Source of the DNA: Acidobacteriota bacterium | GTDB lineage: Bacteria > Acidobacteriota > Blastocatellia > HR10 | Assembly (NCBI GenBank): GCA_030550025.1 | Contig: JAUQQC010000005.1 | Location: 138,857-202,856, forward strand | DNA length: 64,000 nucleotides | Reading direction: 5' to 3' | Part shown: positions 6,879 to 18,000 of the stretch, piece after piece | Layout: the number at the start of each line of letters is the position of its first letter | How positions within the stretch are numbered: position 1 is the stretch's first letter | Program-made: the position numbers and the translations under genes | Notes under the pieces: generated by a model | The model's input: the letters and a program-made list of their open reading frames with translations, nothing else | Told to the model about the DNA's origin: nothing | Database searches by the model: none

Positions 6879-7865
6879 ATGAAGCTTCCCGACGGAACGG
6901 AGATTCGCACGCTGACGGTCTCGGCTTCCGAAGCGGGAGCGCGGCTCGATGTGTATCTGACGCGCGCTCTCGCGGAGCTGAGCCGCACGCGCCTTCAGGC
7001 CTTGATCGAAGACCAGGCCGTGCTTGTGAACGATCGTCCGGCCAAGCCGAGCTATCGCGTGCGCGCGGGCGATCGCATCGAGATCGAGCTGCCACCCCCT
7101 CCGACGTTGGAGCTGCGACCGGAGCCGATCCCCCTCACGATCGTGTACGAGGACGAAGACCTGCTAGTCGTGGAGAAACCGGCAGGGATGGTCGTCCATC
7201 CGGGAGCCGGCGTCTCCGGAGGGACGCTCGCCAACGCGCTCTGCTTCTACTTCCAGCAACCCTCCGTCGCCGGCGGAACGCTGCGACCGGGGATCGTACA
7301 CCGACTCGATCGGGAGACGTCGGGCCTCCTGGTCGTCGCCAAGAACGAGCGCGCGCACGAGGCGCTCTCAGAGCAATTCTCCCGACGCGAAGTGCAGAAG
7401 TTCTATCGGGCGCTCGTCATCGGACAGGTGACACCGCGCGAGGGGTGCATCGCCGCGCCCATTGGGCGTCACCCCGTTCACCGCACGATGATGAGCGTTC
7501 GTCCTCCGGGGCAGGGGCGCGATGCCCTCACGCTCTATCGCGTGCTCGAGACGATCGGAGACTTCTCTTTGTTGGACGTGAAGATCAAGACCGGGCGCAC
7601 GCATCAGATTCGCGTGCACCTCCACTCGCTGGGTCATCCCGTCGTCGGCGATGCCGTTTATGGGCGTGCGCTCTGGACGAAGGTCCGAGATCCGGTGCTC
7701 CGCCAGGCGATGGTGCAACTTGGCCGCCACTTCCTGCACGCGTATCGGCTCGGCTTTCGCCACCCGCGATCAGGGCGGAAGATGGAATTCACTTCCCCTT
7801 TGCCCGAAGAGTTGGAGGCGTTCCTCGCGCTCGCCCGCGCGCGAGCGGTGACCTCGGTGGCGTGA
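6879..7865 (+). CDS. rluD: RluA-family 23S rRNA pseudouridine synthase (RluD-type, S4 domain + catalytic domain)
   Basis: ORF track 328 aa. N-terminal S4-like region, catalytic motif HRLDRETSGLLVVAKN, C-terminal KTGRTHQIRVHL. Confidence 0.8.
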   Translation: MKLPDGTEIRTLTVSASEAGARLDVYLTRALAELSRTRLQALIEDQAVLVNDRPAKPSYRVRAGDRIEIELPPPPTLELRPEPIPLTIVYEDEDLLVVEKPAGMVVHPGAGVSGGTLANALCFYFQQPSVAGGTLRPGIVHRLDRETSGLLVVAKNERAHEALSEQFSRREVQKFYRALVIGQVTPREGCIAAPIGRHPVHRTMMSVRPPGQGRDALTLYRVLETIGDFSLLDVKIKTGRTHQIRVHLHSLGHPVVGDAVYGRALWTKVRDPVLRQAMVQLGRHFLHAYRLGFRHPRSGRKMEFTSPLPEELEAFLALARARAVTSVA

Positions 7866-7884
7866 GTGGCTTCCGAACGCCGGA

Positions 7885-9714
7885 TCACCGCGCCAGCTTC
7901 ACCTCCGTCCAATACCGATCGTAGAGCACGGTCGTCGGACCCAGGTCCTGCAAGTATTCGCTCCGGCGCAACACCTCGGGGGGGAGAGAGAAGATCGGAT
8001 GCCGTTGCAGCTCCGGACGCAGCCGCGGCCACGCCGAACGGTTGGGCATGAGGTACATGATCTCGTTCATGTTCTCGGCGGCGACGGTCGGGTCCAACAA
8101 GAAATTGATGAACTCATGGGCGAGATCGGGACGCTCGGCCGAGCGCGGGATGCAGAGATTGTCCACGATGAGCGTCGTCCCCTCGCGCGGGATCACGAAC
8201 TCGATGTTCGGATTCTCCCGACGCGCCTTGAGGATCTGTCCATCCCACGCTTGAGCGATCCACGCTTCACCGCTCAAAAGGAGTTGGTCGAAATTCGCAC
8301 TGTCGTAGGCGCGCACGAGCGGCTTCTGTCGGCGCAGCAGATCGCGCGCCTGTCGAAGCTGCTCCGGATCGGTGCTGTTCAGGGAATAGCCGAGAAGCTT
8401 CAACGCGGCGCCGAACACCTCGCGCATGTCATCGAGCATCACGATGCGCTCGCGCCATCGCGCCTCCCAGAGATCAGCCCAGCTCCCGATGGGGGCGGCG
8501 ATCTTGTCCTTCCGGTATCCGATGCCCGTGATCCCACGCGTATAAGGAAGCGAGTAGGTGTTCGTGGGATCGAATGGGAGACCAAGCGCTGAAGGGTCGA
8601 GATGTCGGAGGTTCGGCAGCCGCGTCAGATCGAGCGGTTGCAACAGGTTCTCCCGAATGAGGATGCGCACCATGTAATCGCTCGGGACGATGAGGTCGTA
8701 AGTGACCACGCCCGCCTGCAGCTTCGCCAGGAGCGCTTCGTTGGAATCGTAGGTCTCGATGTTCACTTTGACTCCCGTCTTCTCCTCAAAAGCGCGCACG
8801 ACGCGCGACGAGATATAATTGGACCAGATGAGCACGTTCAACGTCGCGCGCGGGCGCCGCGCGACGCTGTCGCCGAAGGCGAAGCCCACTAATCCCAACA
8901 GGAGGAGCCCGACCAACACCAGATGCGTGCGCGTCATCCCCCGCCGCTCGATGCGGAAGGCCAAGGCCATGAGCGCGAGCGTCACCAGAAGCAGGAGCGT
9001 CGAAATGGCGTTCACCTCGGGCGTGATCCCCGTCTTGATCATCGAATAGATGCGCAAAGGGAGCGTCGTCGCGCCGGCTCCGGCAACGAACGACGTGATG
9101 ACGTAGTCATCGAGCGAGAGGGTGAAGACCAAGAGCGCCGAGGCCGCGATCGCCGGAGCCAGAAGCGGCAGGGTGACCTTCCAAAAGACGCGCCACGGAT
9201 TGGCCCCCAGGTCCATCGCCGCTTCTTCCAATCGCGGATCGAGCGTGGCCAGACGCGCGCGCACGACGAAGAAGACGTAGGAGACGCTGAAGGCGACGTG
9301 AGCGATGAGGACCGTCAGCAACCCGAGCCGCAGACCGATCCAGCCGAAGAAGGTGACCGACGCGAATCCGACGACGATCTCCGGCACGACGATCGGCAAC
9401 ACAAAGAGCGTTTCCGAGAGCGAGCGCAGACGTCCGCGCCATCGCTCCAGCGCGAGCACGGCGCTCGTCCCCAGCGCCGTGGCGATGAGCGTCGTGAGCG
9501 CAGCTATCAGCAAGCTCGTGCGCAGAGCGTCGAGCATCGGCGGATTGCTGAGGGCCGCTTTGTACCACGTCCAAGTGAATCCGCGCCACACGGCCAGAAG
9601 CCGCGAGTCGTTGAAGGAGAAGACGGCCAGCACGAGGATCGGTGCATAGAGGAACAGATAGGTCGCCCCCATCCACACCGCGAGGATCGGCGATGTCCGG
9701 GCACGCGCACTCAT
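7885..9714 (-). CDS. potC: spermidine/putrescine ABC transporter permease PotC fused in frame to periplasmic polyamine-binding protein PotD
   Basis: ORF track 7885..10269. ATG at 9712-9714 (MSARARTSPILAVWMGATYLF...) overlaps the potB stop. About 259-aa permease part with EAAMDLGANPWRVFWKVTLPL, then no stop before MTRTHLVLVGLLLLGLVGFAFG and a 350-aa PotD/PotF-type binding domain (NVLIWSNYISSRVVRAFEEKTGVKVNIETYDSNEALLAKL). PotD part begins at the ATG at 8935-8937. Confidence 0.75.
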   Translation of the reverse strand: MSARARTSPILAVWMGATYLFLYAPILVLAVFSFNDSRLLAVWRGFTWTWYKAALSNPPMLDALRTSLLIAALTTLIATALGTSAVLALERWRGRLRSLSETLFVLPIVVPEIVVGFASVTFFGWIGLRLGLLTVLIAHVAFSVSYVFFVVRARLATLDPRLEEAAMDLGANPWRVFWKVTLPLLAPAIAASALLVFTLSLDDYVITSFVAGAGATTLPLRIYSMIKTGITPEVNAISTLLLLVTLALMALAFRIERRGMTRTHLVLVGLLLLGLVGFAFGDSVARRPRATLNVLIWSNYISSRVVRAFEEKTGVKVNIETYDSNEALLAKLQAGVVTYDLIVPSDYMVRILIRENLLQPLDLTRLPNLRHLDPSALGLPFDPTNTYSLPYTRGITGIGYRKDKIAAPIGSWADLWEARWRERIVMLDDMREVFGAALKLLGYSLNSTDPEQLRQARDLLRRQKPLVRAYDSANFDQLLLSGEAWIAQAWDGQILKARRENPNIEFVIPREGTTLIVDNLCIPRSAERPDLAHEFINFLLDPTVAAENMNEIMYLMPNRSAWPRLRPELQRHPIFSLPPEVLRRSEYLQDLGPTTVLYDRYWTEVKLAR

Positions 9715-10559
9715 CGTCCTCTCCTTGAGCGCGCCGTGCGCGAGGCGATCCACAGCAACGCCAGCACGACGACGACGAGCAGGACCGAGAGCGCTGAGCC
9801 CATCGGTTGATTCCGCTGCACGAACTGATTCTGGATGACCGTGCCGATCATCGCCGACTTCGCCCCGCCGAGCAAATCCGGCGTGATGAATGCCCCCAGG
9901 CTCGGGATGAACACGAGGACGATCCCCGTGATGATCCCCGGCCTCGTCAGCGGGAGCACAATACGCCAGAAGACCTGGCGGCGATTCGCTCCGAGGTCCA
10001 TCGCCGCTTCCATCACGCGCACATCCACGCGCTCCAGCGCCACATAAAGCGGCAGGATCATGAAGGGCAGTTCGCCATAGACCTGTCCGATCACCACGGC
10101 GAAGTCCGAGTAGAGAAGCCAGGAGATCGGACGCTCGATCACCCCCAGAGCGAGCAGCGTCGTATTCACAAAACCTTCCACGCGAAGCAGGAACATCCAC
10201 GCATATGTGCGCAACAGGAAGCTCGTCCAGAAGGGGAGAATCGAGAGGACCAGCAGCAGATTCTTCCACTTCGGATCAGCGCGCAGGGCGATGTAGTAGG
10301 CGACCGGATAGCTGACCACCAGGCAGAGCGCCGTCGTCACCGCCGCCAGGGCGAAGGAACGCCCGTAGACCCAAAGGTAAAGGGGGGCCATCGCCTGCCG
10401 ATAATTCCACAGCCCGAACGTCCACCGCACACCGCCGTAGAGGCCGCGTTCGGCGAAACTCATGACGACGATGAGTCCTAACGGGAGGAGGAAGAACAGG
10501 AGCAACCAGAGGGCAGAAGGGGCGAGCAGCAACCAACGGTTCGCATTCGTCTCCCGCAT
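9711..10559 (-). CDS. potB: spermidine/putrescine ABC transporter permease PotB
   Basis: ORF track. Start set to ATG 10557-10559 (MRETNANRWLLLAP...) just below the potA stop. Permease motif EAAMDLGANRRQVFWRIVLPL. Confidence 0.8.
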   Translation of the reverse strand: MRETNANRWLLLAPSALWLLLFFLLPLGLIVVMSFAERGLYGGVRWTFGLWNYRQAMAPLYLWVYGRSFALAAVTTALCLVVSYPVAYYIALRADPKWKNLLLVLSILPFWTSFLLRTYAWMFLLRVEGFVNTTLLALGVIERPISWLLYSDFAVVIGQVYGELPFMILPLYVALERVDVRVMEAAMDLGANRRQVFWRIVLPLTRPGIITGIVLVFIPSLGAFITPDLLGGAKSAMIGTVIQNQFVQRNQPMGSALSVLLVVVVLALLWIASRTARSRRGR

Positions 10560-10566
10560 TTCGTCC

Positions 10567-11658
10567 TCACCGAGAGAGGACGACGATGCTCTCGCGCGTC
10601 CAGCAGAGGAAGACGCGCTGCCCGTCACGGAAGGCGTCGGCTTTCGAGCCCGGGCGATTCGGCTCGGTCACGGTGACGTAGTGCTCCCCGACGCGCACGC
10701 GCCAATGCGTGGCTTCGCCCAGATACAGGCATTCCTCGATCACCCCCTCCAGTTGCACGAGATCGGTCCGGCGCAACGGGCGCGCGCGCAAGGCGATCTT
10801 CTCCGGGCGAATGGCCACCTGAGCCCGCGAGCCCTCGATTCGCCGCCCGTTAAGCGGGACCCGCACCGTGTGCCCGCACAGCCCCAGGAGCGCATCGCCG
10901 TTCTCACGGTGCAGGATCTCGGCCTCCAAGACATTGGCCGCCCCGAGAAAGGTCGCGACGAAGGCCGTCTCCGGACGCTCGTACACCTCGCGAGGCGTGC
11001 CGATCTGTTGCAGGCGTCCATCGGCGATCACGGCGATCCGATCCGACAGGGCCAGGGCTTCTTCCTGATCGTGCGTGACCAGGAGAAAGCTGATGCCGAC
11101 CTCGCGCTGCAAGCGCTTCAACTCGCGTTGCATCTCTTTGCGAAGTTGGAGATCGAGCGCCGCCAGCGGTTCATCCAGAAGCAGCGCTTCCGGCTCCAGC
11201 ACGAGCGCGCGCGCCAGGGCCACGCGCTGCTGCTCGCCGCCAGACAGCTCGTGCGGCCATCGCCGTTCGTATCCCGAGAGCCGCACCAACTCCAACGCCG
11301 CGGCAACCCGTCGCTCGATCTCCCGTCGCGAGAGCCGCTTCTGCTCCAGTCCGAAAGCGACGTTCCGATACACGTTCAGGTGTGGGAAGAGGACATATTG
11401 CTGGAAGACCGTGTGCACGCGCCGCCGATAGGGGGGGACGTCGGTCACGTCTTCACCGCCCAAATACACGCGCCCGTCATCCGGTCGTTCCAACCCGGCG
11501 ATCACCCGCAAGAGCGTCGTCTTCCCCGAGCCCGAAGGACCGAGCAACGTGAGGAACTCGCCGCGTTCGACTTCCAACGAGACCGCCTCAAGCGCTGTGA
11601 CCGCACCGTAGCGCTTGGTCACGCCCTCCACGCGAATCGCACTGGTTGCGGTCGCCAT
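10567..11658 (-). CDS. potA: spermidine/putrescine ABC transporter ATP-binding protein PotA
   Basis: ORF track 363 aa. Walker A GPSGSGKTTLLR, signature LSGGEQQRVALARAL, Walker B LLLDEPLAALD, C-terminal regulatory domain. Confidence 0.85.
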   Translation of the reverse strand: MATATSAIRVEGVTKRYGAVTALEAVSLEVERGEFLTLLGPSGSGKTTLLRVIAGLERPDDGRVYLGGEDVTDVPPYRRRVHTVFQQYVLFPHLNVYRNVAFGLEQKRLSRREIERRVAAALELVRLSGYERRWPHELSGGEQQRVALARALVLEPEALLLDEPLAALDLQLRKEMQRELKRLQREVGISFLLVTHDQEEALALSDRIAVIADGRLQQIGTPREVYERPETAFVATFLGAANVLEAEILHRENGDALLGLCGHTVRVPLNGRRIEGSRAQVAIRPEKIALRARPLRRTDLVQLEGVIEECLYLGEATHWRVRVGEHYVTVTEPNRPGSKADAFRDGQRVFLCWTRESIVVLSR

Positions 11659-11786
11659 CGTTCGTCTTCGGGGCTATAAAATAAACGAGTCGGCAGGTCC
11701 GGCGCAAGCCTCCGAAGATGCGAACACCGCGCGGCGGTGAGCGTTTCCTCGCCGAAGGCGCTGCGCGCGCTCGAAGCGGCTCTCTC

Positions 11787-12368
11787 TCAGGGGACGTCGC
11801 CGAAGGCCCCCTCGATCAGTTCGCACAAGATGTGGCCGAGCGTGATATGCGTCTCTTGAATGCGCGCCGTCTCTTCCGAGGGGACGACGAGCGGCACATC
11901 CACGAGCCGTCCGACCGGACCCCCGTCGCGCCCCAGCAGGCCAATCGTGCGCAGACCGAGCCGTCGCGCCGTCTCCACAGCGCGCACGACATTGGGCGAA
12001 CGACCGCTCGTGCTGATGGCGACGGCGACATCGCCCGGTTCCCCGAGCGCCTCGATCTGTCGGCTGAAGACGTCCTCGAACGAAGTGTCGTTGGCGATCG
12101 AGGTCAGAATGGACGTATCCGTCGTCAGCGCCAGAGCGGCGAGCGCTGGACGCTCCCGCCGATAGCGATTGACCAATTCCGCGGCCAGATGCTGCGCATC
12201 GGCCGCGCTGCCGCCGTTCCCGAAAAAGAGGACCTTATGGCCGGCGCGCAGCGCGGCGATCATCAGCTCGGCCGCGCGCGCCACTTCCTCGGCATGCGCT
12301 TCGAAGAAGCGCTCTTTCACGCGCACGGATTCGCGAGCCGAGGCTTTGATGCGTTCGACGGTCGTCAT
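11787..12368 (-). CDS. SIS-domain phosphoheptose isomerase (GmhA-like)
   Basis: ORF track 193 aa. [20 protein letters not shown] and [15 protein letters not shown] are typical of GmhA/DiaA SIS proteins. Confidence 0.65.
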
Positions 12369-12396: not shown

Positions 12397-14874
12397 CTAC
12401 CGGAAAATATCGCGCCAGGCGGCGACGCCCCCCCAATTCAGCCGCGCGCCCACGCGGAAATTGAGCTTCGGCGCGGGATAGCCGAAGACCTCCGTATACC
12501 GCTGATTCAACACGTTCTCAATGACGGCCACAAGCGTGAGGCGATCGTGCGGCCGAACGCTCAGGCTCACGTCCAGCTTCTGATACCCCGGATTCAGATT
12601 GCGATTCGGCAGAAGCATCGAGGGGCCGAAGAAGGGGTCCGAGAGGAACGTGCTCGTGTCACGGCGGCCGACGAACGATCCGACGACCGCCGCGCTCCAG
12701 CGCGAGCGCGCCCACCCTAGGAGCAGACTCCCCACATGGGGAGGGCGTTGAAAGGGACGCGCGCCCACCAGCGGCGCGAACGCGCCGATGGGAATGCCAG
12801 GGAACGCCGGATTGAAGGAAGGTCGTAACGCATCGCTGGAGAACGAGCGCAGAATCTTCGCATCCACGTAGGTGTAACTCCCGCGCGCCATGAGCCCGTG
12901 GCCGAGATCGGCCAGCAGCTCGACCTCCGCACCGCGCGCGCGAAACGTCTGCGCGTTCACGTTCGCCCCAAACGGCGTCGCCTGCGCGACTTCGGCCGGA
13001 ACCCCAAGCTGCACAAGCGCCGATCGCGAGAGGAATTCGATCACGTTCTCGAACCGATTGTGAAAGAGCACAAGCGACAGGCGCGCGTGATTCCACCCGA
13101 AGTTCTGATCCAGACCGACCTCGAAGCTGCGATTGCGCTCCGGTCCGATGGGCGCGATCCGAAAGCGCGCGATCAGCGCTTCGCCCGATTCCCCCAGGCG
13201 GCGCAGCACGGCGAAGAGCGACGATCCCTCCTGGAAGATGCTCGGCTCCTTGATGCCCGTGCCGAAATAGAACCGCAGCTTCATCTCGTTCCACCAGGAC
13301 GATGTCTCCCCGCGTCGCAGCACATACGCCAGCGAGACGCGCGGATTCGCGTCCACGCCGAACACAGCATTATCCTCGATGCCCACGCCCGCCGTCACAA
13401 ACAATCGCGCCACCCAATTATACTGGCCCTGGAGGAAGTAGCTGAAATTATTCCGCGCGACGCGTTGCGCGCCCGAACGACCGCGCTCGTTCTCGTAGCG
13501 AAAACCAAACGTGCCCGTGAACGCCTCCCCCACCGATACATCCGATTGCGCGAAGAGCGATTGTCGTACCGTGTCGGTCACGAACGTTTGCGGATAGACG
13601 CCGCCGAAGTCCAGGATCGCGCGCCCGCTCACGCGAAATCCGTTCCCCCCGACGATGGTGACCGGGGCGCCGAGATACACCGGGCCGAAGCCGAAGGGAT
13701 CAAAGGGTTCACCCGTCGGCGCCGGATTCGTGAAACGACTCATCGAATGGACCGAGGAGAAGCGGATCTGATTCTGCCAACGGCGCATCGCATGATGCCG
13801 TCCGCTCAGCACCACGTAAGTCTCGCGCCCGCGCATAGTGGAATCATCGGGAATGCCGTAGAAGTCGAGCGCATTGGGCACGCCGAGCGCCATCACCGTG
13901 TGACGGAGCACCAGGCGAACCTCCGACGCGACGCTCGGTTGCCAGCCGAAATTCCCGGCATACGTCCCGTTGTGGTAGGCGTGATGGGGAAGGTGATTGT
14001 CCGTGTCGTAGCGACTGAAACTCGAAGCGTAATCGAACGCGCGAGCCGCTCCGGATAAGGACACCTCCTGCCGCAGGCTGCGATAGCTTCCCCCTTCGAT
14101 GGCATACCCGAACACAGGGATGCGCGCGTGCTCTCGTCCGCGACGGGTGAAGATTTGGAGGACACCACTTGTGGCATCCGATCCATAGAGGACGCTGTTG
14201 GGATTTCGCATGACCTCGACCCGTTCGATTTGCGTCCCCACGAGCGTGGAGAAGTCGAAGAAGCCACCGATCTGATTGATCGGCGCGCCATCGAGCAACA
14301 CCTTAGTGAAGCTGCTGTTCCCCCCCCGCACGAAGAGGCTCGCCTGTCCCCCGCGTCCCCCAGTCTGCGCGACATGCAGGCCGGGGATGAGCCGAAGGAG
14401 CTCCAGGACATGCACCTTCGCCTGACGCCGGAAGTCGTCCTCTTCCACCACGGCGACCGAGGCGCCCAATTGCGCTCGCGGGACTTCGGTCCCCGTCGCC
14501 GTCACGACGATCTCCTCCCGCAACGGGCCAACCGAGAGCATGACGTCCAGGACGCGCACGGCATTCGCCGGCACGAAGACGTTCGAAATCGTGCGCGGCG
14601 CAAACCCCTCTCGTTCCACGCGAAGGTCGTAGAGGCCGCCGGCCAGTCCCGCAAACCGATAGCGTCCGCTCTCGTCCGCGCTCGCGCGCGCGACCTGCTG
14701 CCCATCCCGAAGGAGCACGATGGAAGCTCCGGGAAGGACGGCACCAAGTGGATCGGTGATCCGTCCCTCGAGCGCGCCACCGGGTGCGCGCTGCCCGGCG
14801 AAGACCGATGCGCACAGAAGAAGACCACCCAGGATCCATCCGACGCTCGAAAGCATCTGCCGATTTTTTCGCAT
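12397..14874 (-). CDS. TonB-dependent outer-membrane receptor with N-terminal carboxypeptidase-regulatory-like domain (probable cobalamin receptor by context)
   Basis: ORF track. Start set to ATG 14872-14874 ([17 protein letters not shown]...) with AGGGAG RBS, just below the upstream ATPase stop. Signal peptide, [19 protein letters not shown]...GRYRF domain, TonB-box-like EEIVVTATG, plug and beta-barrel, C-terminal aromatic residue. Confidence 0.8.
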
Positions 14875-14896
14875 CTCCCTCCTCCCTGACAAAAAT

Positions 14897-15760
14897 TCAG
14901 CGCTCCCGCTGGAGCACGAACTTCGGAGCGGACGCCGCTCCATTGGTGCGCTCACCCGATGGATTGCCGCCTCGATCAGGGATCGGCCCCACGAAGGTGA
15001 TCCGCGGCGCTCCGCTCAGTGGATGGCGATCCACGAGGAACTCCGCCTCGAAGGCCTGCCGGAGTCTCTCTTCAGTGAACACTTCATGAGGCGGCCCACA
15101 GGCGATCACCTGCCCATCCTTCAACAACAGCACGCGGTCGGCGAATTCGGCCACGAGATTCAGCTCGTGCGCGATGAAGACCGTCGAGAGCGCGCGCTCG
15201 CGCGTAATCCGTCGGATGAGCGCGAGCATCTCGACTTGAAAGCGCACATCCAGATTCGCCGTCGGCTCATCCAACAGCAGCGCGCGGGGTTCCCCGGCGA
15301 GAGCGCGCGCCAGGACCACGCGCTGCCGCTCGCCTCCGGAGAGTTCGGCAAGCTCCCGATCCTTGAATTCCAACGCGCGCATGAGGCGGAGCGCCGAGAG
15401 CGCGATCTGCCGGTCCCGCTCGCTCTCGAAGCCGAAGCCATTCGAATACGGGAACCGCGCGTGCAGGACGTATTCGAGCACGGTCATCGGAAAGCCGAGC
15501 TTCGGCTCCTGGAGGACGACGCCAAACCGTTGCGCCAACTCGCGAGGAGAGAAATGCCCAAGCGGCTTCCCCTCCCACAGAACCTCGCCTCGCTGCGGGC
15601 GCAGCAGCCCACGCATCAGTCGGAGCAGCGTCGTCTTCCCCGATCCATTCGGGCCGATCACGGCGACGAGTTCTCCCGAAGCGACGACGAGCGAGACGCC
15701 AGCGAGCACCGGTCGAGCGCTCCGTTCATAGGCGAACGTGACGTCGCGCACTTGGAGCAT
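14897..15760 (-). CDS. ABC transporter ATP-binding protein, FecE/BtuD family
   Basis: ORF track 287 aa. Walker A GPNGSGKTTLLR, signature LSGGERQRVVLARAL, Walker B LLLDEPTANLD. Confidence 0.85.
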   Translation of the reverse strand: MLQVRDVTFAYERSARPVLAGVSLVVASGELVAVIGPNGSGKTTLLRLMRGLLRPQRGEVLWEGKPLGHFSPRELAQRFGVVLQEPKLGFPMTVLEYVLHARFPYSNGFGFESERDRQIALSALRLMRALEFKDRELAELSGGERQRVVLARALAGEPRALLLDEPTANLDVRFQVEMLALIRRITRERALSTVFIAHELNLVAEFADRVLLLKDGQVIACGPPHEVFTEERLRQAFEAEFLVDRHPLSGAPRITFVGPIPDRGGNPSGERTNGAASAPKFVLQRER

Positions 15761-17754: not shown

Positions 17755-17789
17755 CCCAGCGTCACCTCGCGCCAGTTTCTGCCACACGC

Positions 17790-18000
17790 GAGCGGGCAGG
17801 TCTCCTGACTGAGTCCCTGGCTCATCCGCGCGATGAGCAGGTCAGCGCCTTCCCAACCCCTTCGGGCCAGTGGCCTGAGTGCCGACCATGCGGGACATCA
17901 CAGTGGCGAGGGCCGTGCCGGATTCGCACCGGACTTCCCTATTCTCCCGAAGTACCCTCATGCCTGCAGGCCTTCGGGCACCCGCCGCGTTGTGAAAGAA
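17790..18000 (-). promoter_or_regulatory. cobalamin (B12) riboswitch
   Basis: Minus-strand RNA reads ...GGTGCCCGAAGG...AGGGAAGTCCGGTGCGAATCCGGCACGGCCCTCGCCACTGTGATG...GGCCACTGGCCCGAAGGGGTTGGGAAGGCG...TCAGGAGACCTGCCCGC. B12 box GCCACTG is the complement of 17901-17907. Directly 5' of the BtuF-like start. Boundaries approximate. Confidence 0.7.

Follow-up and report, generated by a model that had tools for sequence, protein, structure and literature searches.

The window analysed here, a 64,000-nucleotide (nt) stretch of contig JAUQQC010000005.1 from an Acidobacteriota bacterium of the Blastocatellia, carries on its minus strand what reads as a potA-potB-potCD operon for an ATP-binding cassette (ABC) importer of the Pot type, with potCD as the last gene. 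In potCD, a PotC-type permease and a PotD-type substrate-binding protein (SBP) are joined in a single reading frame. The fusion is real and is neither a chance open reading frame (ORF) nor a read error, because an identical 609-residue protein is encoded on an independent public contig (P0001), the frame is open in the homologues of 81-92% identity, and the third-position GC content is continuous. The features of the locus are, in window coordinates:

7885..9714, minus strand: potCD, a single ORF of 609 codons plus stop, encoding the permease, an anchor (the seventh transmembrane (TM) helix, TM7) and the binding domain (translation).
8941..9714, minus strand: PotC permease domain, residues 1-258 (NCBIfam PotC, PDB match, hydropathy, AlphaFold2 helices).
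8872..8940, minus strand: cytoplasmic turn (R258-G-M-T) and predicted TM7, residues 262-281, THLVLVGLLLLGLVGFAFG (hydropathy, AlphaFold2, alignment to the PotD precursor).
8935..8937, minus strand: internal in-frame ATG (Met260), proposed as a separate start; Met in 8 of 120 aligned homologues.
8845..8871, minus strand: variable periplasmic linker, residues 282-290, DSVARRPRA (AlphaFold2 coil, variable alignment columns).
7888..8844, minus strand: PotD/PotF-type substrate-binding domain, residues 291-609 (NCBIfam PotD, PDB matches, Foldseek).
9718..9726, minus strand: Shine-Dalgarno-like AAGGAGAGG, ending 4 nt before the potCD ATG (read from the sequence).
9711..10628, minus strand: potB, first permease subunit, as a mechanical ORF from GTG 10628 (Pfam BPD_transp_1, NCBIfam PotB).
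10567..11658, minus strand: potA, first gene of the operon, an ABC ATPase with a C-terminal TOBE_2 domain (Pfam ABC_tran and TOBE_2).

When the minus strand of the window is translated, the potCD frame runs from ATG 9714 to the TGA at 7887-7885 through 609 codons without an internal stop. The longest six-frame ORF (7885..10269) reaches further upstream, but the biologically sensible start is ATG 9714, as it overlaps the potB stop codon (ATGA) and is preceded at 4 nt by AAGGAGAGG. Within this single frame the third-position GC is 0.85 in the PotC part, 0.90 at the junction and 0.80 in the PotD part. Pfam places BPD_transp_1 on residues 85-255 and SBP_bac_8 on residues 306-572 of the product, and the NCBIfam models for PotC and PotD cover residues 12-258 and 287-608, respectively. 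Translation, Pfam and NCBIfam agree in this with the initial annotation, in which the PotC frame from 9714 continued without a stop into a complete PotD/PotF-type domain.

The same architecture is found in many related proteins. A search covering 5.8 billion proteins, in which the homologue counts are lower bounds (at least 119 full-length), returned besides the identical protein 118 further full-length proteins of ~590-640 residues and 52-92% identity in which both Pfam domains are present. The named full-length homologues belong to the Acidobacteria, Acidobacteriota or Blastocatellia, and those at 81-92% identity have the same uninterrupted frame. Between potCD and its 91%-identical homologue L001, 102 codon differences are synonymous and 57 non-synonymous, without any indel; 9 synonymous and 7 non-synonymous differences fall at the junction.

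The permease part of the fusion is of the PotC type. Hydropathy and the AlphaFold2 helices give six hydrophobic segments before residue 258, and an EAA-type coupling motif, LEEAAMDLGANPWRVFWKVTLP, can be read at residues 162-183. The PDB chain of E. coli PotC (8y5f_C) is matched with E=2.3e-53 over residues 14-261 of the fusion, and in this alignment Y223 and K227 coincide with the scoop-loop residues Y219 and K223 of the E. coli protein. The AlphaFold2 model of the whole product, built on an alignment of 118 sequences, has a mean predicted local distance difference test (pLDDT) score of 82.9.

The binding domain has the PotD fold. In the PDB, its sequence matches include VcPotD1 (7xjm, E=8e-69) and 1pot (E=5e-65), and Foldseek gives target-normalised TM-scores of 0.89-0.92 to 7xjm, 1pot and 8y5i_E. 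In this Foldseek search against the PDB only the PotD half was matched, and no chain with a transmembrane domain (TMD) fused to a substrate-binding domain (SBD) was found among the top 50 matches listed. Eight spermidine-contacting residues of PotD, four acidic and four aromatic, have been listed (PMC11414716). Six of these are kept in the fusion (W34, Y37, W229, D168, E171 and D257 in E. coli numbering), and a polyamine-like substrate is likely on the basis of the sequence.

The junction between the two parts reads ...LALMALAFRIERRG-MTRTHLVLVGLLLLGLVGFAFGDS... in the translation, identical to that quoted in the initial annotation. The topology was derived from hydropathy, charge bias and the secondary structure of the AlphaFold2 model. 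A short basic turn (ERRGMTR) precedes a seventh hydrophobic segment at residues 263-281, with a Kyte-Doolittle mean of 2.16 over 19 residues. In the AlphaFold2 model, a helix at residues 232-258 (TM6) is followed by a 3-residue turn, a helix at residues 262-280 (TM7), a coil at residues 281-290 and the first PotD strand at residues 291-296; the pLDDT falls below 50 in the linker at residues 283-287. The precursor of E. coli PotD aligns with the fusion from its residue 7, signal peptide included, over residues 264-608 (phmmer), and TM7 is therefore read as the former PotD signal peptide. The match to the chain of E. coli PotC, by comparison, stops at residue 261, past the basic turn that follows TM6 and before TM7. 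This E. coli permease spans the membrane with six helices (PMC11414716). With six helices, and the chain match ending before TM7, the C-terminus of PotC would lie in the cytoplasm, so that an odd extra helix is topologically required. Among 120 aligned proteins the uncharged TM7 span is 17-28 residues long, with a median of 22, and lysine plus arginine average 3.2 in the 10 residues before TM7 versus 1.8 in those after it. The prediction that this membrane anchor puts the binding domain on the outer face is thus supported. It had already been suggested in the initial annotation that the former PotD signal peptide acts as an extra TM helix with the binding domain outside, and that the topology be predicted; the phmmer alignment, the seventh helix at residues 262-281 found by hydropathy and AlphaFold2, and the excess of basic residues on the inner side are all in line with this proposal.

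As an explanation of the whole, it is considered highly probable that potCD is a genuine, evolutionarily maintained fusion that works in a tethered-receptor PotA2-PotB-PotCD importer. Most likely, the fusion originated when the stop codon between adjacent potC and potD genes in the same frame was lost. With the C-terminus of PotC in the cytoplasm, the former signal peptide of PotD would have been kept uncleaved as TM7 (residues 262-281). This helix would bring the chain back across the membrane, and the linker of ~10 residues would tether a complete PotD-fold receptor outside. The product would then assemble with its partners as PotA2-PotB-PotCD, a type I ABC importer in which each complex has one, and only one, covalently tethered binding domain. 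The tethered domain would capture a polyamine-like substrate and dock on PotB/PotC in the manner of the free PotD of E. coli. The analysis shows the open frame and its conservation, the identity of the domains, the predicted TM7 and the PotD fold; it is the uncleaved TM7, the stoichiometry of the complex and the substrate that we infer here.

Several observations weigh against this reading. The NCBIfam scores of PotB (253.6 bits), PotC (238.9) and PotD (235.4) all lie below the equivalog cutoffs of these models (348, 326 and 582, respectively), so that neither orthology to the proteins of E. coli nor, in consequence, the substrate is established. Two of the eight ligand positions have been changed, namely E36 to N299 and W255 to I516. 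W255 has been described as critical for spermidine binding (PMC11414716). To judge from these positions, the substrate preference may differ from that of E. coli PotD. Finally, the outer end of TM7 carries a conserved F278-A279-x-G281-G282 motif (FAxGG), whose small residues at -3/-1 resemble a signal-peptidase site.

This last point leads to the rival that survives best, although it is regarded as unlikely: the fused precursor might be cut by signal peptidase I at residues 278-282, after FA-x-G and before G or D, which would free a periplasmic PotD and leave, in a 1:1 ratio to it, a PotC with one additional helix. The four fixed positions of the motif are 87-93% conserved in the 120 Blastocatellia-type homologues, the segment is homologous to the signal peptide of PotD, and some distant fusions contain lipobox-like linker motifs (LGLAAC in P0125, SLAGC in P0168). 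Against cleavage, the uncharged span with its median of 22 residues and its continuous predicted helix of 19 residues exceeds the usual length of cleavable h-regions. In other acidobacterial fusion types, FAxGG is replaced by Pro/Trp-rich interface motifs (VPLIARTWP, GPLTWRRW and SPLWWPTL). These lack a peptidase-like site, and cleavage is therefore not the general reason for keeping the fusion. Characterised TMD-SBD fusions (OpuA) also remain intact (PMC7673798). There is likewise only a slim chance that the fusion is a 'polyprotein' device, in which a cut between FAxG and the following G gives one free PotD per PotC, or that, in the many Blastocatellia genomes with a stand-alone potCD, PotCD forms a homodimeric transporter with two receptors and an ATPase encoded elsewhere.

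Stand-alone homologues of potCD, without potA or potB within 4 kb, were observed in many Blastocatellia genomes (L004-L006 and L008-L016; e.g. L013:3863-5773 and L004:3956-5833). Of these loci, L004 and L013 were examined: both have a divergent ExbB/TonB cluster upstream, and genes for an M16 peptidase and a UbiE methyltransferase downstream. The stand-alone genes imply that the permease and ATPase partners are encoded at other places, unless the protein works differently, e.g. as a homodimer.

A separate initiation of translation at the internal ATG had also been considered in the initial annotation. In this case PotD would also, or mainly, be translated from ATG 8937 and give a normal secreted protein with its own signal peptide. 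The in-frame ATG (8937-8935) does coincide exactly with the beginning of the signal-peptide-like segment, directly preceded by the G-rich GAGCGGCGGGGG. However, a Met is found in column 260 in only 8 of the 120 aligned homologues, and any Met within residues 255-266 in 35 of the 120. The G-run abuts the ATG and no AAGGAG-type site is present at ~4-12 nt, whereas the start of potCD has AAGGAGAGG ending 4 nt upstream; in the scan of positions 7600-12000, furthermore, no promoter-like site was found. The internal start is thus judged very improbable and the suggestion is not upheld.

The distribution of the fusion was followed in a genome scan with one genome per species, in which 80 loci were kept and each was checked for a frame that stays open across the PotC and PotD matches. 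The two parts are fused in one frame at 27 of the 80 loci, mainly in Acidobacteriota, with Blastocatellia as the closest. The fused loci belong to Blastocatellia, a metagenome-assembled genome (MAG) of the Terriglobia, Vicinamibacteraceae, group 11 and other Acidobacteriota, together with one Ignavibacteriaceae MAG (L053) and one Verrucomicrobiota MAG (L057). Separate genes were scored at 52 of the 80 loci, including those of Nitrospira, Chloroflexi, Planctomycetota, Burkholderiales and one Acidobacteriota MAG (L020). The non-fused loci are non-acidobacterial except for two, and their potC and potD are adjacent and in the same frame with one or a few stops between them; the shared frame in nearly all separate loci stems from the ranking of matches in the search rather than from biology. 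A stop within the PotC match, or right at its beginning, is the sole ground on which two loci (L042 and L064) were scored as separate. At the split loci, the N-terminus of PotD is an ordinary lipoprotein or Sec signal peptide (...LSSCGQG in Nitrospira, ...AQAADE in Collimonas). The comparison of orthologues that had been proposed in the initial annotation thus shows loci that are not uniformly separate, and a frame that stays uninterrupted in the 81-92% homologues.

Several single loci deserve mention. In a long-read Blastocatellia MAG (L077:4001-5825), the PotC and PotD parts lie in different frames and the PotD match begins only at residue 107 of the domain query; this frame break is probably an indel error or a pseudogene. 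Several MAGs titled 'uncultured Clostridia bacterium' (L002, L003, L005, L012 and L014) have potCD loci that are 52-81% identical to those of the window and of Blastocatellia MAGs. These titles look like taxonomic mislabels and are unfit for inferring the distribution of the fusion. A supposed fusion in Acetoanaerobium noterae, suggested by a single tblastn piece (H6), was rejected, as its ORFs show two same-frame genes split by stops; single-piece tblastn matches are therefore no proof of fusion.

The rival of an artefact of sequencing or assembly, or of a potC stop lost in this strain alone, can practically be dismissed. In its favour, potC and potD are commonly found in other phyla as separate genes of the same frame with one or a few stops between them, a fusion could in theory be imitated by an error in a single base, and the related MAG L077 has a frame break. 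Against it, the identical protein stands on an independent contig, the frame is open in more than 100 diverged homologues from many assemblies, the codon-position GC is continuous over the junction, and the junction changes relative to L001 are both synonymous and non-synonymous, without indels.

Fusions of this kind also occur well beyond the Acidobacteriota. Searching 1.84 billion cluster representatives exhaustively with phmmer gave, among the best 150 matches, ~21 clusters (at 50% identity) of fused PotC-PotD proteins, with identities down to 31-35%. All of these have a hydrophobic linker segment (17-residue Kyte-Doolittle maximum of 1.9-3.3) preceded by basic residues, while the sequences and lengths of the linkers are unrelated. 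The named members include the RefSeq entry 'MULTISPECIES: extracellular solute-binding protein [Clostridium]' (with C. botulinum), Oscillospiraceae/Ruminococcaceae proteins of 751 residues, and Verrucomicrobia. Fusions in the databases such as P0122 (Clostridium, 614 residues), P0150/P0273 (Oscillospiraceae, 751 residues) and P0126/P0271 (Verrucomicrobia, 617 residues) share the order PotC, hydrophobic linker, PotD, and match the query in a single stretch over residues ~10-606. They differ in having 31-45% identity, unrelated linkers (53-92 residues projected) and generic annotation. The PotC-PotD architecture is thus recurrent and has probably arisen by repeated loss of the potC stop.

In some of the distant fusions, lipobox-like motifs were observed at the end of the linker helix (LGLAAC in P0125, SLAGC in P0168 and LKSCSG in P0145). 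These motifs hint that such fusions were derived from lipoprotein-type PotD genes and are perhaps still substrates of signal peptidase II.

A fused PotCD has been named before. NCBIfam NF043073, 'spermidine/putrescine ABC transporter permease/substrate-binding protein', already covers Mollicutes, and the gene name potCD is in use for Mycoplasma capricolum (PMC3177781). Literature searches for a Pot fusion outside Mollicutes found none within the searchable library. The view of the initial annotation that fusions are unusual for Pot systems holds insofar as they are a minority form; they are not novel, given the named Mollicutes cases and the many lineages, RefSeq Clostridium included, in which they occur. 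The PotC-PotD fusion, whose arrangement recurs in hundreds of database proteins, is accordingly an ordinary, already catalogued and lineage-conserved variant.

Among the operon partners, PotA passes the cutoff of the NCBIfam subfamily model TIGR01187 (potA; 365.1 bits, cutoff 355.6), while its score of 379.8 bits against the equivalog model is below the cutoff of 482. The mechanical potB ORF from GTG 10628 overlaps the end of potA by 62 nt, and the true start of potB is probably the ATG at 10559 (MRETNAN...), just past the potA stop. No free potD paralogue was found in the window. In the scan of positions 7600-12000 for promoters and terminators, no promoter-like site and a single terminator-like site were found, which is below the numbers in shuffled controls. 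Elsewhere in the window, a full-length cobalamin riboswitch was observed on the minus strand at 17778-18000 (Rfam RF00174, 100.4 bits, E=6e-24); an ORF for a CarboxypepD_reg-like/TonB-dependent-receptor-like protein (12397..14955) lies further downstream on the same strand.

Besides the database fusions described above, the system can be compared to three known arrangements. E. coli PotABCD (PDB 8Y5F-8Y5I; PMC11414716) has the same gene order (potA, potB, potC, potD), the same domain families and the TOBE domain of PotA. Its PotD, however, is a separate, secreted, periplasmic protein whose signal peptide is cleaved, whereas here it is joined to PotC via TM7. The Mollicutes PotCD (NF043073; MMSYN1_0195, and MCAP_0200 of M. 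capricolum, PMC3177781) is likewise a single permease and substrate-binding polypeptide encoded after potA and potB. In contrast, its model has 1021 positions versus the 609 residues found here, and the score of 244.4 bits, in two separate stretches, is far from the cutoff of 1250. By these measures the Mollicutes protein belongs to a different orthologous family and probably represents an independent fusion.

The third arrangement is that of OpuA (OpuABC) of Lactococcus lactis, GlnPQ and OpuF, which are also type I ABC importers with a TMD-SBD fusion. In OpuA, the SBD is fused to the TMD with an anchoring helix, so that the receptor is tethered at the membrane (PMC7673798). Such tethered domains have been studied in depth in OpuA and GlnPQ. 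OpuA and GlnPQ consist of unrelated transporter and SBP families, for glycine betaine or amino acids, and no OpuA/GlnP permease or SBP model or PDB chain was found among the matches listed for the fused protein; the likeness is architectural only. OpuA and GlnPQ are also homodimers with two or four SBDs. In the potCD system, PotB and PotC would form a heterodimer in which PotC alone is fused, and one SBD per complex is therefore expected.

Beyond annotation, the finding is of little importance. For annotation, it means that the locus should be entered as one potCD ORF, permease plus substrate-binding protein, and be neither split nor flagged as a frameshift. The name 'extracellular solute-binding protein' alone is inadequate, yet it is used in many database entries. 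The acidobacterial PotCD would be a natural example of a type I importer that is heterodimeric and has one tethered receptor, versus the two or four in OpuA and GlnPQ. As such, it may serve as a comparison system for the effect of tethering on uptake kinetics in dilute, oligotrophic habitats, a principle that has already been established.

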